Positions 7,696 through 24,644 of a DNA stretch of 24,644 nt are shown here, in pieces. The stretch's first letter is position 1. Each line of letters opens with the position of its first letter. This DNA comes from an uncultured virus (IMG/VR IMGVR_UViG_3300035670_000116) (lineage: Duplodnaviria > Heunggongvirae > Uroviricota > Caudoviricetes). The notes under the pieces are model-generated. The model worked only from the letters and a program-made list of their open reading frames with translations. It made no database searches and was not told where the DNA came from. The stretch is from the IMG/VR virus record IMGVR_UViG_3300035670_000116, one strand, 5' to 3'. Made by a program: the position numbers and the translations under genes.

Positions 7696-7724
7696 GTATG
7701 ATGCACCAAGATTGACTCTTGGTG

Positions 7725-8345
7725 ATGGCATTTCAAAGTGTTTGGTACTTTACAGACATCCCTGAGGATGTCGTAAATATTATTGAGCGAGACCTGTCTG
7801 AAAAGTTTGACGATCAGATGGCGGACTCCAAGCTCCATGGGGACGCATTAAATAAAGATAAACGAAACTCAAAGAATGCCTGGGTGCCCACCACGAATTG
7901 GGTTGGTGGTTTTATTTGGCATTACATTGAGCGTGCAAACCGGGAAAACTTTCTTTACGAGTTGCGTTGCATTGACTCTGAATCTATGCAATACACCAAA
8001 TACGAGAAAGGTGAATTTTACGGTTGGCACAATGACGCCGGTTTGGCTACGCAGTACAAGCCAGTGTCCGTGGGTAATAGAACTGACGGCCTTGCTCAAG
8101 ATTATCTCAACGAACGCGTTGAGATGGTTCGCAAGCTTTCGTTTGTTCTGCAGCTTTCTGATCCAGACGATTACGAAGGAGGAAACCTGCAACTTCTTGA
8201 TGAAGCTGGTAAGTCCTACATTGCACCTCGCAAACGGGGTACCATAATCTTGTTTGACTCCCGTACTCAGCACCGCGTATTGAAAGTACGCAAAGGTGTT
8301 CGTAAATCCTTGGTGGGTTGGACCGTTGGCCCTCGTTGGAAGTGA
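7725..8345 (+). CDS. 2OG-Fe(II) oxygenase (prolyl-4-hydroxylase/PKHD-like)
   Basis: HxD (WHND), RKLS...YEGG.L, distal His (HRV) and 2OG-binding Arg (RKSLVGW). Alternative starts at 7719 and 7722. Confidence 0.9.
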   Translation: MAFQSVWYFTDIPEDVVNIIERDLSEKFDDQMADSKLHGDALNKDKRNSKNAWVPTTNWVGGFIWHYIERANRENFLYELRCIDSESMQYTKYEKGEFYGWHNDAGLATQYKPVSVGNRTDGLAQDYLNERVEMVRKLSFVLQLSDPDDYEGGNLQLLDEAGKSYIAPRKRGTIILFDSRTQHRVLKVRKGVRKSLVGWTVGPRWK

Positions 8346-8353
8346 GGTAAATC

Positions 8354-9064
8354 ATGGATATTCATCAGCTTGCTGTTCAAGAACGGACCAATACCGGCAC
8401 TGCTTGGACTCGGAATGAAAGTTTTGACCGAGATGGCTATCTCGTCATTAAAAACCTTTGGGACCCTAAAGAGTTGTATCACCCTGTTCCTAAGGAACGA
8501 GGACAAATCAACTACTTTGGCAAGACAACGGATCAATTTCATCACAACCCAGTTGAAGCGCAGGTCGAAGGATCACTCGCTCGGTACTGGCACCCGCAAT
8601 ACCGCGAGATCCACGGTCAAATCCGCATCAAGCTGGAGAAGGAACTTGGTCGCCCGCTGTACAACACGTATTACTACGACAGGTTTTATTTCCCTGGCCA
8701 AGAACTAAAGATGCATGCAGATCGTGATGCATGTGAGATTTCAGTCACTGTTCATATCAGTACCAACTTGACAGGAGGCGATGAAGAATGGCCAATCTGG
8801 ATTAAGACACCTGATATCTATTCAGATAAAAAGAAAGAAAATGTCCTTGTCCCTGGAGAAGATCGCAAAGTAATCCTGGAACCAGGAGACGGCATGGTTT
8901 ATAAGGGATGTGAGCGTCCTCACTGGCGAGAAGCAATGCCTGGTGCTAACCGAAGTAAAAAATTGTTTGGTAAAGGAGAAGAACTTTACTATCATCAGAT
9001 TTTCTTCCATTACGTTCTTCAGGACGGACAACGCGCACACTGCGCCTTTGATGCAGCCAGGTAA
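8354..9064 (+). CDS. Second 2OG-Fe(II) oxygenase-like protein
   Basis: HxD (MHADR), CEISVTVHI, GDGMVYKGCERPHWRE, QIFFHY. RBS GAGG upstream. Confidence 0.8.
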   Translation: MDIHQLAVQERTNTGTAWTRNESFDRDGYLVIKNLWDPKELYHPVPKERGQINYFGKTTDQFHHNPVEAQVEGSLARYWHPQYREIHGQIRIKLEKELGRPLYNTYYYDRFYFPGQELKMHADRDACEISVTVHISTNLTGGDEEWPIWIKTPDIYSDKKKENVLVPGEDRKVILEPGDGMVYKGCERPHWREAMPGANRSKKLFGKGEELYYHQIFFHYVLQDGQRAHCAFDAAR

Positions 9065-10545: not shown

Positions 10546-11037
10546 TTATTCTAAATCGTGTGGTTTATAGATATAAAAAGATTTTGTTTCTTCATCAATA
10601 GCGTACAGAAGATTTGGATGATGGCGGTTAATCCATTTCTTCCAGATCACCATCTGACGTTCTGCTTCTGCTGATTCGCAGTAAAACATAACCATATCCC
10701 CTGGAGGAAGTACATCCAGCCATACGTACAGCTGCCGAAGAGCAATGGCATGACCAGAATTTCCCCCCAGCCCTGTCAGGTTGTTATCTAACTTTTGAAC
10801 GCGCTTTCTTTTGGTGCGGCGCATCAACCAATCGTTAATCTGTCGCCGGCTTTTGCCAACGGCTAAACTGGCCATCCACGCGTAGTTTTTCCCAATACAT
10901 ATCCATGGAATCAAACGGGTCACCGCTATCGCACCGTTCTTTAGACGCAGTGTTGTCACCAGCTTCTTTCGTTTGATTCGCTTGCATTTTTTCTTTTTAA
11001 TTAAGGAAGTAAAAGTTAGTTGTCGTAAATCCGACAC
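10546..11037 (-). CDS. Hypothetical basic protein (up to 163 aa, start uncertain)
   Basis: Long ORF whose only early in-frame starts are GTG (11037 and about 10959). Confidence 0.65.
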   Translation of the reverse strand: MSDLRQLTFTSLIKKKKCKRIKRKKLVTTLRLKNGAIAVTRLIPWICIGKNYAWMASLAVGKSRRQINDWLMRRTKRKRVQKLDNNLTGLGGNSGHAIALRQLYVWLDVLPPGDMVMFYCESAEAERQMVIWKKWINRHHPNLLYAIDEETKSFYIYKPHDLE

Positions 11038-11153
11038 TGGACCGCACCAGGATTTTCTTCACAATAGCGATGAAACTTTTCCGTTGGTGACGGGTAATAG
11101 ATCCGACAGCGCTTAAAGAGCTTGCAGATAATCCAGTTGTAGAAACCCATCAT
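11016..11153 (-). CDS. Minimal CP12-like peptide (45 aa)
   Basis: Hand-translated: MMGFYNWIICKLFKRCRIYYPSPTEKFHRYCEENPGAVQCRIYDN. The C-terminus matches the CP12 motif F/YxxYCxxNPxAxECRIYD. ATGA overlap with the upstream stop at 11150-11153. Confidence 0.8.
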   Translation of the reverse strand: MMGFYNWIICKLFKRCRIYYPSPTEKFHRYCEENPGAVQCRIYDN

Positions 11154-12073
11154 GGCCTGTTAGTTAAAGTAACAAAAATCTCTGGGAACTTTTCGTCTGG
11201 ATGATGTTGTTCGCTCCAAGCTTCTTTCCATTCTGACAGGGTATGGTCATGAACAGTATTGATAAATTCAGGATCTCCAAACTCAAGTAAGAAGAAGTTG
11301 TCATCAGCCAAAGCTGCACCACTACCCTGCGGGCTGCCAATTAACCACTCAGATCCGTTAAGGATTTCTACTGTCACACCAGGGTTGATGATGCATTCGG
11401 TATCAGTAAAACCGTTTGGCTTCCCTGGGACCGTTGAAATTTGAGTGTCAACAGTAATGGGAGAGTTGTACGTGACGGTTGTAACGTCATCAATGGTTGT
11501 TTCCTGGAGGTAGAGGGTGAAGTCCTCTAGGGCAAGCAAGTATTCAACTTCAGCAAACTCAACGATTACGCCAACGTTGTAATCAAGGCGTTCGTTGCGA
11601 GTTGTAGAAACACATAAGAGATAGCTACCAGCCTGCAGGGGATAGTAACGGTCATCCCCGCGATCCAGTCGGAGTCTGGAATAGGTGTTATACAAATCCG
11701 ACTGGGTACTCATTGCGGTATCCAAGTACGGAAAGTATGCCTCTTCCGTTGTCAGGCTGGTTCCCTGACGAATTGAATCTTCTTGGAAGATTGGCAGACC
11801 AACAATCGGTGTTTGATTGAGGTCATACATTGATGTTTGTATGTAGTTTGGGCGAGGCCCATCCTTAACAACAATGATCCATCCCGGTTGACCTAAATTG
11901 ATTTGAAACCAGTGGTTATATGTACCGCCGCCATAGCCATTCAGGCCAACCTGGTTCAAAGGTCCAAGAGTTCCCTTCAGGTAACGCAAAGACAGCTGAG
12001 AAAAATATCCCAGGTCAAGAGGGTTTTCTTTTGTTCTTTGACGTTGGCCTGTTTGATTTGAATTCCTAGACAC
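11150..12073 (-). CDS. Hypothetical, possibly virion-associated protein with a beta-sandwich (PPC-like) domain (307 aa)
   Basis: WFQINL...LQAGSYLLCVS resembles PPC-like domains. Contains an INPGVTVEILNGSEWLI module similar to the fibre C-terminus. Confidence 0.6.
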   Translation of the reverse strand: MSRNSNQTGQRQRTKENPLDLGYFSQLSLRYLKGTLGPLNQVGLNGYGGGTYNHWFQINLGQPGWIIVVKDGPRPNYIQTSMYDLNQTPIVGLPIFQEDSIRQGTSLTTEEAYFPYLDTAMSTQSDLYNTYSRLRLDRGDDRYYPLQAGSYLLCVSTTRNERLDYNVGVIVEFAEVEYLLALEDFTLYLQETTIDDVTTVTYNSPITVDTQISTVPGKPNGFTDTECIINPGVTVEILNGSEWLIGSPQGSGAALADDNFFLLEFGDPEFINTVHDHTLSEWKEAWSEQHHPDEKFPEIFVTLTNRP

Positions 12074-12091
12074 TTCTATACAACAACCCTT

Positions 12092-12784
12092 TTACTCATT
12101 GTACTCGGGCCGTTCTTTCACGTATTCAGGATGAGTGATAACATTCTTGTACTCCTTTTCAATCACTGGTCTAATACCAGACTCACGTTGAGACTGACGG
12201 TTGAAGAGCATTAGCTTCTCAGCTTTGAAGTCAACCTCCAGTGGAGTCACGCTCGCCGGCGGATAACTGCGGTTGAAGCTGGAAACCATATGCAAGGGGT
12301 TGGCGCACTTCGGGTTACTGCACAGGCGCGTCACCACCAGGCTTCCCACGTCCCCCCACGCACACTGGTAAATCGCCTTGTGGACGTTGACGTTCTCGGA
12401 CTTGTTTCTGCTGTACCCAGACCTGTAGGACGGAAGACACACTCTCTTTGGGGTACTGCCACCAGGGGATTCCATCTCCCAACACTCGTCAGGAAAGCTG
12501 ATCCGAATCTTTTTCCACAGCTTGGCGTACTTGTGTTTGTAGTCGACGTGCAAGTAGTTGATGTCAAAGCCGCACACGTTGCTCAAAATCTTCTTCGCGC
12601 ACTCGTAACACCAGTGTCCTTCTGAGTCTCGAATGAGATGACCGTGAGGGCATGCGAAGCCCCGGTAGTAGCCCAGCTTGTTGAGCTGCTCCTCTTCCAG
12701 GTTCTCGATCCCGCTGACGTGCCGGAAGTTGGGCTGCCCGAACTCCTTCTCGATCTGCTGGAGCTTCTTGACCACGCTTGCCAT
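12092..12784 (-). CDS. Zn-finger / His-Me (HNH-like) homing-endonuclease-fold protein, probably catalytically inactive
   Basis: N-terminal CPHGH...CYEC ribbon, ECW, VHKAIY and RLCSNPKCANPLHM (CxNxxCxNPxH Zn loop). Arg sits where the catalytic His of HxC normally is. Confidence 0.7.
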   Translation of the reverse strand: MASVVKKLQQIEKEFGQPNFRHVSGIENLEEEQLNKLGYYRGFACPHGHLIRDSEGHWCYECAKKILSNVCGFDINYLHVDYKHKYAKLWKKIRISFPDECWEMESPGGSTPKRVCLPSYRSGYSRNKSENVNVHKAIYQCAWGDVGSLVVTRLCSNPKCANPLHMVSSFNRSYPPASVTPLEVDFKAEKLMLFNRQSQRESGIRPVIEKEYKNVITHPEYVKERPEYNE

Positions 12785-14357: not shown

Positions 14358-14717
14358 CTATACACAAACTGACGGAGTAATAGAACGGGTTAATTCCCGC
14401 TCCTCCGATGTCTGCGCCTTAAGTTTGTACTTCAGAAACTCAGCAGCCTTGTGGGTGTTGGTCGTGTCGCCACAGGTGTAGAGGTCAATGGCGGCATAGC
14501 CCATCTCTGGCCAGGTATGAATTGAGGCGTGGGATTCAGCCAGCAGTGCCAGTAGGGTCACGCCTTGGGGTTCAAACTTCTCTCCAAAGATCCTGAGGAT
14601 CGTGGCTTTGGACATCAGAAGAGCAGCCTCAAGCCACTCCTCCAGCAGGTCATAGTTATCCAAGATCTCTGGATCGCAGTCATACAAATCCAGAATTAGG
14701 TGACGCCCATTAGACAT
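14358..14717 (-). CDS. speD: S-adenosylmethionine decarboxylase proenzyme (pyruvoyl-dependent)
   Basis: GRHLILDLYDC, FEPQGVT, LLAESHASIHTWPE (E-S self-cleavage site) and YAAIDLYTCG. Confidence 0.93.
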   Translation of the reverse strand: MSNGRHLILDLYDCDPEILDNYDLLEEWLEAALLMSKATILRIFGEKFEPQGVTLLALLAESHASIHTWPEMGYAAIDLYTCGDTTNTHKAAEFLKYKLKAQTSEERELTRSITPSVCV

Positions 14718-24124: not shown

Positions 24125-24644
24125 ATGACCACTCTTGTAGCGAACGTACCTCCCGTCAAGGTCTGGGTGCGGCGCGAGTATTTGCGTGACCTGCGCGATG
24201 GCCATGGGGAATACACCCCCGGCTATTGGGTTACATGTAAATCGCTTACTGGCCGCGCCCTGTACTTTGAGACGTACCTGATGGAGTACGGAGCGCTGTA
24301 TGACAAGCTGCCCATCAGTGCGTTCTTGTCCTGGGACCCTGACCATCCGGACAAACCCGTAGCGCCAACCCCAGATCTAGAGTTGACAGACCTTCAGTTC
24401 TGGAATGGGTTTGATCACGGGTTAGTTGTTGTCGAAAAGAACTTGATCTTCAATATGAGTTTTGAAGTCCTGACACGAAGTGCAGGTGTAATGAAGGGCA
24501 CATATCTATTTACGGTTGACAATTACCATCCTCATAGAAACGAACCCGACTTTTACTTTGCGGAGTTTCCAGATGAGCACAAATCCCATAACATCGTGGC
24601 TCTGGACAACGGTCAAATTGGTGCTTATCCCAATAACCGTTGTC
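24125..24644 (+). CDS. Conserved phage hypothetical protein, truncated at the right edge (MTTLVANVPPVKVWVRREYL...YDKLPISAF...PNNR)
   Basis: AGGAG RBS, open to the window end. Motifs resemble a family I recall from cyanophage and T4-like genomes. Confidence 0.8.
   Translation, partial: MTTLVANVPPVKVWVRREYLRDLRDGHGEYTPGYWVTCKSLTGRALYFETYLMEYGALYDKLPISAFLSWDPDHPDKPVAPTPDLELTDLQFWNGFDHGLVVVEKNLIFNMSFEVLTRSAGVMKGTYLFTVDNYHPHRNEPDFYFAEFPDEHKSHNIVALDNGQIGAYPNNRC

Follow-up and report, generated by a model that had tools for sequence, protein, structure and literature searches.

CP12 is a textbook case of a phage gene that rewires carbon fixation in the host, and it is known as a near full-length protein from marine T4-like cyanophages. 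A 24,644-nucleotide stretch of DNA from an uncultured virus of the Caudoviricetes (IMG/VR record IMGVR_UViG_3300035670_000116), referred to below as the window, raises the question of whether a phage can carry the end of CP12 alone and, if so, what such a protein would do in the cell. On its minus strand, at 11016..11153, lies an open reading frame (ORF) of 45 codons, here named mini-CP12, which the original prediction, made without database searches, described as CP12-like, with the GAPDH-binding C-terminal tail kept and the PRK-binding half lost. Pfam and profile matches bear this description out. The ORF is a genuine phage gene. Homology and a modelled complex make it probable that its product is a true derivative of CP12, reduced to the tail, and that it docks on host GAPDH with no part played by PRK; whatever goes beyond this docking is less certain.

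The mini-CP12 gene and its CP12 tail

The coding sequence consists of 45 codons followed by a TAA stop at 11018-11016 and encodes the peptide MMGFYNWIICKLFKRCRIYYPSPTEKFHRYCEENPGAVQCRIYDN. It had been noticed as a minus-strand ORF below the cut-off of the gene track, and it is indeed present in the ORF list; the Pfam match, the homologues and the purifying selection described below agree with this assignment. The predicted ATGA coupling to the upstream gene was also confirmed: the ATG (11153-11151) overlaps the TGA (11152-11150) of an upstream 307-residue ORF (11150..12073), giving a start/stop overlap at 11150..11153 by which the two genes are likely coupled in translation. Since no slippery sequence precedes the upstream stop in the window, this would be coupling by termination and reinitiation and not by frameshifting.

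Three parts can be distinguished in the peptide, all encoded on the minus strand: a head (residues 1-16, MMGFYNWIICKLFKRC, 11106..11153), in which a hydrophobic run is followed by Lys/Arg and which bears Cys10 and Cys16, specific to a sub-clade; a variable linker (residues 17-23, RIYYPSP, 11085..11105); and the CP12 tail (residues 24-45, TEKFHRYCEENPGAVQCRIYDN, 11019..11084), with a Cys31-x3-Pro35-x4-Cys40 loop at the extreme C-terminus. The peptide of the window has four Cys (C10, C16, C31 and C40), the head pair lying within CKLFKRC, and it is basic overall (isoelectric point 8.8) owing to its head, whereas canonical CP12 is an acidic protein. An AlphaFold2 model places helices at residues 2-13, 23-33 and 38-44, with low confidence (mean pLDDT 65.6). 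The string CRIY occurs twice, which had been taken as a hint of internal duplication. Both strings are present in the window, the first one reaching into the linker, but Arg17 is found in only 1/34 aligned family members, with E, Q, H, A, C, T or S in the others, and the first CRIY is therefore a peculiarity of the window sequence and no trace of a duplication, an idea that was rejected.

In a scan of Pfam-A the peptide gave a single match, to CP12 (PF02672), scoring 27.0 bits where the curated cut-off is 22.7, with an E value of 7.8e-6. Residues 24-44 are aligned with positions 50-70 of the 70 positions of the profile, i.e. with its last third only; positions 1-49 are unmatched, in agreement with the predicted lack of an AWD-VEEL core. 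A profile of the family, compared with PDB sequences, retrieved the CP12 chains 3zdf_C (23 residues, 2.2e-9) and 6gfo_E (6.2e-9), the CBS-CP12 protein 5nmu_A (3e-7), 3b1j_C (25 residues, 5.6e-6), 6kez_M and 3qv1_G (both ca. 1e-4, the latter 1.4e-4) and, weakly, the C-terminal extension of GapB (2pkq_O, E 0.026). Residues F27, Y30, C31, N34, P35, C40, R/K41, I42, Y43 and D/E44 of the tail are common with solved GAPDH-bound CP12 peptides.

What these matches leave out can be read from the description of CP12 by McFarlane et al. 2019 (PMC6800369), in which residues 1-52 form a PRK-binding hairpin with AWDA(V/L)EEL and an acidic patch, residues 55-75 alone constitute the GAPDH-binding domain, which inserts into the active site, and Glu69 clashes with the 2'-phosphate of NADP, so that binding of CP12 and of NADP(H) is mutually exclusive. 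Classical CP12 proteins are defined by a C-terminal CxxxPxxxxC, a central AWD_VEE(L) and an N-terminal Cys pair (PMC3906501), and the CxxxPxxxxC end is also described on GapB, ADK3 and argininosuccinate lyase, mediating interaction with GAPDH (PMC9406205). In mini-CP12 this end stands behind an unrelated 16-residue N-terminal module, as a portable tail.

A family in a fixed genomic slot

Among phage records, that of Synechococcus phage S-EIVl, from a high-arctic lake, is the only one similar to the window at the DNA level, and the window represents part of a Synechococcus phage of the S-EIV1-like kind. S-EIVl contains an unannotated 45-residue homologue of mini-CP12 (64% identity, tblastn E 7e-12) located between the genes for AHV82134, a 312-residue homologue of the upstream protein, and 'PurM'. 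A word-indexed protein search with mini-CP12 rendered three clusters of 44-45 residues, all of them already labelled PF02672, and a scan of viral contigs with the alignment of these clusters rendered 22 confirmed loci from 287 pattern matches, with an ORF of 44-46 residues in 22/22. This set was retrieved by patterns taken from the head, so that the near-invariance of FYNWL[IV]CKLFKRC is partly a matter of ascertainment.

Among 20 distinct coding sequences (190 pairs) the median proportion of synonymous differences (pS) was 0.83, which is saturated, and that of nonsynonymous differences (pN) 0.26; over the 44 pairs with computable dS, the median dN/dS was 0.16. By segment, median pN was 0.09 in the head (residues 2-16), 0.58 in the linker region (17-26) and 0.27 in the tail (27-45); the value of 0.09 for the head of these FYNW-type sequences compares with a pS of 0.91, in a set that was found through the head motif and is hence biased. 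Homologues have been kept in related phages, as the original prediction entailed, and on these comparisons mini-CP12 is under purifying selection there.

An unconditioned sample was obtained by scanning viral contigs with an alignment of the upstream protein, which gave 241 relatives, 80 of which were kept. An ORF of 37-47 residues with a CP12 tail at its end occupies the slot behind the upstream gene in 65/80 of these loci, and it starts at -1 of the upstream stop (ATGA) in 64 of the 65 and at -11 in the other. These ORFs represent 44 distinct peptides, all of which match PF02672 at E<=0.01 (36/44 reach the cut-off) and have both tail Cys; hydrophobic residues average 6.7 within positions 2-14, against 3.6 basic and 0.1 acidic ones, and the usual head of the family reads like MIKQLLALFRKK. 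The Cys pair that had been pointed out in the N-terminus is present in the window peptide, but it is found in only 4/44 of the distinct slot peptides and is not a feature of the family. By this comparison the peptide of the window is an FYNW-type sub-type with head Cys, within a larger orthologous family.

A further scan was based on the tail (247 relatives, 80 kept, 61 distinct peptides). By our count 42/61 of the distinct peptides are of the 69-78-residue CP12 kind of T4-like cyanophages, and at loci with a 307-residue homologue directly upstream the ORFs are short and tail-only in 14/14 cases, with Lys/Leu/Phe-rich or FYNW-type heads. A search of a representative library also rendered CP12-tail peptides of 38-55 residues whose heads are of other kinds (hydrophilic in some, Cys-rich in one), as well as a 66-residue protein (P0020) with a Cys-rich head and a CP12 tail; three long repeat or low-complexity proteins (P0004, P0012 and P0013) were set aside. 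A 94-residue metagenomic protein (P0028) has a mini-CP12 head of the S-EIVl type followed by the C-terminal portion of the PurM-like protein encoded downstream (compare L001:4004-5032) and looks like a deletion variant in which the CP12 tail was lost. No cellular relatives were confirmed in 185,579 species genomes, in which the family alignment gave 24 pattern matches. When S-EIVl, two 100%-complete relatives (85 and 82 kb) and two partial ones were searched for PF02672, the mini gene was the only match (profile positions 47/49-70), apart from one extra sub-threshold match (12.1 bits, with an internal stop) in the 85-kb genome.

The gene appears to be mostly missed by gene callers, with 3 protein clusters against 954 homologues of its upstream neighbour. 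Its length of only 45 residues, its lack of annotation in the GenBank record of the type isolate S-EIVl and the lack of PHROGs and NCBIfam matches, which extends to both of its neighbours, could be taken as signs that this is no gene but an ORF that arose by chance, in intergenic or overlapping sequence. A chance origin has, nevertheless, a negligible probability, given a Pfam CP12 score above the curated cut-off and an ORF whose presence, length and start overlap are kept in dozens of diverged loci with saturated synonymous sites.

Departures from canonical CP12

Canonical CP12 (Pfam PF02672; Thermosynechococcus 6GFO/6GVE, Synechococcus elongatus 3B1J) has ca. 75-90 residues, against 45 in mini-CP12, which lacks the two-helix PRK-binding domain, AWD_VEEL and a homologous N-terminal Cys pair. 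Its C10 and C16 are separated by 5 residues, instead of the 9 between Cys19 and Cys29 of the Thermosynechococcus protein, and stand in a non-homologous context. The tail of mini-CP12, like the canonical one, has its end right at the C-terminus. The C-terminal extension of GapB in plant A2B2 GAPDH, Chlamydomonas ADK3 and CBS-CP12 likewise have a CxxxPxxxxC docking module joined to another part; in contrast to them, the partner part in mini-CP12 is merely a helix of 12-16 residues, and the protein is free-standing and phage-encoded. The CP12 of T4-like cyanophages (70-78 residues, e.g. the P-HM2 type) is also phage-borne and has the same C-terminal loop, and the host Calvin cycle is the presumed target of both proteins (PMC3906501). 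That protein, however, has a long acidic helical N-terminal part and covers nearly the whole Pfam profile (95.7% of the residues of P-HM2 CP12 align; bioRxiv 10.64898/2026.09.10.750766), whereas mini-CP12 consists of the last third of the profile plus a basic hydrophobic head, in phages without talC and psbA.

Within the family, PF02672 is matched at E<=0.01 by 33/34 members, and the tail Cys are conserved to different extents, Cys31 in 33/34 and Cys40 in 29/34, with Ala for the last Cys in 5/34. The FYNW-type relatives L010, L017, L019, L020 and L021 lack the last Cys only. In S-CRES3 gp30 (L024:2405-2569, 54 residues, annotated 'CP12 domain protein') Leu and Ala replace both tail Cys. As to the residue before the last Cys, the Gln that had been noticed in place of the CP12 Glu was verified: Gln39 (codon at 11039-11037, minus strand) aligns with Glu69 of Thermosynechococcus CP12, the conserved residue that excludes NADP(H). 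Its loss is seen across the family, this position being occupied by E in 19, Q in 9, S in 3 and H, G or A in 1 each of the 34 members, and by G in 14, E in 10, C in 9, A in 4, Q in 3, S in 2 and D in 2 of the 44 slot peptides.

Predicted docking on Gap2

When the family alignment was co-folded with Synechocystis Gap2 (G3P2_SYNY3) and NAD, the score was 0.85 in 3/3 runs, the best of 3 controls being at 0.00; the mark used is reached by 116/157 solved complexes and by 2/215 mismatched pairs. Contacts were reproduced between the runs to at least 97%, and the partner pLDDT was no lower than 78. Confident contacts involve, on the peptide side, only residues 27-28, 31, 35-36 and 38-45, and on the Gap2 side residues 98-100, 122-123, 153-155, 181, 184-196, 199, 211-214, 233, 242 and 317. 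The tail is thereby placed in the active-site/S-loop cleft, the same cleft of Gap2 that is used by canonical CP12, while the head makes no confident contact with Gap2. Binding of mini-CP12 to Gap2 is a prediction of this model. The tail alone was placed by this structure prediction, and the placement may stem from likeness to known structures: since similar complexes have already been solved, a pass in this assay shows likeness, not binding.

The head of the peptide

Amphipathicity was assessed in the unconditioned sample on 17 heads sharing <=8/14 identical residues, using a fixed span (residues 2-13) and 2000 shuffles. The alpha-helical hydrophobic moment was above the shuffle mean in 16/17 heads (Stouffer z 5.0, a rough value since the lineages are related), and the beta periodicity of the same heads was -2.0. 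An earlier moment test on 13 heads, which were selected by eye, showed the same trend. Amphipathic helices that are short and rich in Leu, Phe and Lys typically serve to target proteins to membranes, the end of MinD being an example. A different kind of head is found at L131:1915-2055, where a 47-residue CP12-tail peptide in the same slot behind the 307-residue gene has a hydrophilic, Lys/Glu/Thr-rich head and a tail ending in CLMYDD.

BLASTP pairs W7-I-I-C-K-L-F-K-R of the head with W-D-I-V-E-E-L-Q-A of cyanobacterial CP12, with reversed charges and in a pairing that may be due to chance, and the Pfam alignment extends back to profile positions 32-37 in 3/44 slot peptides. These alignments faintly suggest that the head could be what remains of CP12 helix 2, with its charges reversed. 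The head is positive, and so is the site of PRK that is described as bound by the acidic AWD_VEEL patch, which speaks against docking of the head there. A search of the ESM Atlas with the head (residues 1-22) gave no usable match.

Neighbouring genes and gene content

The upstream partner (11150..12073, minus strand) is a conserved 307-residue protein with 954 homologues at E<=1e-5, 0 of which have a Pfam domain and which are named 'hypothetical protein' where named at all. Such a homologue lies directly upstream of the mini gene in 23/23 FYNW-type loci, with an ATGA overlap in 20 and TAATG in 3, and in 36/102 of the searched loci. The C-terminus of the protein is invariant (L-T-N-R). In its 375-residue homologues P0127 and P0135 a PNGFT...INSG.TVTVL segment is repeated internally. 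The AlphaFold2 model is of low quality (pLDDT 50.6). Its N-terminal beta-sandwich weakly resembles pre-peptidase C-terminal/collagen-binding domains (residues 10-172, Z 8.0, root-mean-square deviation 2.9 A over 97 residues), a borderline match; PliG is matched at Z 7.8, and such Z also occurs for models without true matches. A profile of the protein found no match among PDB sequences, and the ESM Atlas offered only leads at 0.80-0.83, the pre-peptidase/collagen-binding-like lead being a weak one (0.80). No fusion of mini-CP12 to this family was seen among 36 longer matches, all of which are cellular CP12 or CBS-CP12, which is weak evidence.

The downstream gene (10546..11037, minus strand, ca. 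140-163 residues) belongs to the same operon and its true start is uncertain. In the window, L002, L003 and L005 no ATG precedes its conserved Lys/Arg-rich N-terminus, and the earliest start there would be a GTG formed from the Gln39/Cys40 codons of the mini gene, with a 22-nt overlap, whereas in L008, L011 and L016 an ATG start lies 1-4 nt past the mini stop. A 50-residue ATG ORF in another frame (10835-10987) may be spurious. A scan for promoters and terminators around the mini gene gave the same counts as shuffled sequences; the sole strong hairpin, at 10294-10266 (minus strand; 12 pairs followed by a T-run), is the probable end of the minus-strand operon containing the mini gene.

Genes recognized in the window with PHROG and Pfam encode a primase, an S-adenosylmethionine decarboxylase (14358-14717, minus strand), a group-1 glycosyltransferase, an HNH endonuclease, an endolysin, a ferredoxin (24125-24643, plus strand, cut by the end of the window) and two adjacent 2OG-Fe(II) oxygenase-like proteins (7719-9064, plus strand). 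The decarboxylase, ferredoxin and oxygenase-like genes are host-like, and the ferredoxin may matter for the redox conditions under which a CP12 disulfide would operate. The HNH endonuclease gene (12092-12784, minus strand) is located between the glycosyltransferase and the 307-residue gene; in S-EIVl this place is taken by three small hypothetical genes, so that the endonuclease gene is probably a mobile insertion.

Possible modes of action

In the mechanism that we propose, mini-CP12 would be a two-part protein made of a GAPDH-binding loop (Cys-x3-Pro-x4-Cys, then R-I-Y-D-x) and a head. By homology with solved CP12-GAPDH complexes, the loop would insert into the active-site/S-loop cleft of host Gap2, occupying its catalytic sites and hindering the use of NADPH. 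Without a PRK-binding half, the protein could influence carbon fixation only via GAPDH and not through the canonical GAPDH-CP12-PRK dark complex; the missing domain argues against GAPDH-PRK bridging of the canonical kind. The head, predicted to be a hydrophobic basic helix that is clearly amphipathic in most relatives, could stand in for PRK, providing extra avidity or a second attachment to the membrane, to itself or to a phage partner, and mini-CP12 would be made together with the upstream 307-residue protein through the ATGA overlap. Taken to its end, this would make mini-CP12 a PRK-independent GAPDH trap, in which the tail plugs Gap2, the loss of Glu gives insensitivity to NADPH and the head gives PRK-like avidity, a scheme that we put forward tentatively and consider doubtful as a whole. 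Up to four peptides would pin the Gap2 tetramer to the anionic thylakoid or plasma membrane or to the 307-residue protein; the NADPH-consuming reduction step alone would be off, ribulose bisphosphate (RuBP) regeneration and carboxylation would continue, and 3-phosphoglycerate and NADPH would be diverted to phage synthesis. If true, it would be a hijack of the Calvin cycle distinct from that of T4-like cyanophages.

A number of observations weigh against the proposed mechanism of docking and inhibition. The binary GAPDH-CP12 complex of Thermosynechococcus is reported to keep its Vmax with NADP+, NADPH can displace CP12 from it, and only the PRK-containing ternary complex blocks GAPDH fully, through avidity (PMC6800369); it is possible therefore that a bare tail inhibits weakly, which makes the head and the loss of Glu the interesting parts. 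The FYNW-type head of the window itself shows no amphipathic excess (z 0.0, its moment being reached by 602/2000 shuffles), and 1/17 heads is hydrophilic (L131). In 15/80 of the related loci the mini gene is absent and the next gene is one of ca. 140 residues or a PurM-like gene. With 5/34 members devoid of the last Cys, and both Cys missing from S-CRES3 gp30, the redox switch is, on the alignments, not universal and dispensable in some lineages. The NADP-clashing Glu is Gln in the window, and by alignment Glu stands at that position in just 19/34 members and 10/44 slot peptides. As for the modelled complex, its Gap2 was a Synechocystis stand-in folded as a monomer, and the pass may be a recall of solved CP12-GAPDH structures.

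It can also be the case that mini-CP12 keeps the Calvin cycle running instead of damping it. As a decoy, the peptide would fill the CP12 site on Gap2 and block host CP12 from bridging GAPDH to PRK, so that the dark complex would not be formed, PRK would be free and NADPH-loaded GAPDH would be active. This too is a doubtful proposal, although a peptide without a PRK-binding domain fits it, as do the sparing of the NADP+-dependent Vmax in binary CP12-GAPDH and the displacement of CP12 by NADPH reported in PMC6800369. Moreover, transaldolase (PF00923) and the photosystem reaction-centre family that includes psbA (PF00124), which accompany CP12 in T4-like cyanophages, were each found in 0/3 genomes (S-EIVl and its two complete relatives), which means that the usual gene set to shut the Calvin cycle and boost the pentose phosphate pathway is absent. 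A conserved head, however, would be superfluous in a simple competitor, and 16/17 non-redundant forms have kept a hydrophobic basic one; the frequent loss of the NADP-excluding Glu fits a binder resistant to displacement by NADPH at least equally well.

The head could alternatively serve to recruit a second protein while the tail docks on Gap2, in analogy to CP12 bringing PRK, or ADK3 bringing itself, to GAPDH; CP12-like tails are described as recruiting other proteins to GAPDH (PMC9406205). The prime candidate for such an adaptor would be the co-translated 307-residue protein, given the start/stop overlap in all 23 FYNW-type loci, the start at -1 in 64/65 slot ORFs, the tail-only ORFs in the 14/14 tail-scan loci behind a 307-residue homologue and the invariant L-T-N-R at the extreme C-terminus of that protein. 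Against this, the tight linkage could reflect operon compaction only, the 36 longer matches include no fused form (a weak negative), the fold of the 307-residue protein is poorly modelled, and the heads vary widely between lineages with their chemistry kept, a pattern that one would sooner expect from lipid binding than from a specific protein interface; we consider an adaptor unlikely. A loop that no longer targets GAPDH, with a four-Cys peptide binding a metal or another host protein, is very improbable. CP12 has been reported to bind metal ions (PMC9406205), the form in the window does have four Cys, and two tail positions, 42 and the one preceding the last Cys, differ among family members, but the head Cys pair is confined to 4/44 distinct peptides, and the tail retains the residues common to solved GAPDH-bound CP12 peptides, terminates exactly at the C-terminus as in CP12 and is put in the known site by the co-fold. 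Docking of the tail on GAPDH, with inhibition and the role of the head as more conditional steps, is the reading that we retain as the most likely.

Significance for cyanophages and their hosts

Part of this picture was already known. Reviews credit cyanophages with proteins that resemble CP12 in its C-terminal region (PMC3906501, PMC9406205), databases tag the called copies of mini-CP12 as PF02672, and S-CRES3 gp30 bears its CP12 annotation. A preprint on viral CP12 that surveys 1,421 CP12 homologues gives a median profile occupancy of 0.964, and truncated forms do not come up in its text as far as searched (bioRxiv 10.64898/2026.09.10.750766). The literature search, whose scope did not include the genome paper of S-EIV1 (PMC4542036) or the study by Thompson et al. 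2011 (PMC3182688), found no report of a tail-only CP12 in a phage and none that connects S-EIV1 with CP12. What is new is that an S-EIV1-like freshwater lineage carries a tail-only CP12 in a fixed genomic slot.

The protein is a natural 'separation-of-function' CP12, with which it can be tested whether docking on GAPDH without PRK suffices to change the metabolism of the host, and its family also allows tests of the contributions of the NADP-excluding Glu and of the disulfide. With a length of 37-47 residues chemical synthesis is feasible, and decisive biochemistry would therefore be cheap. The phage gene family to which mini-CP12 belongs is widespread and largely unannotated, and it may act on host carbon fixation without engaging PRK.

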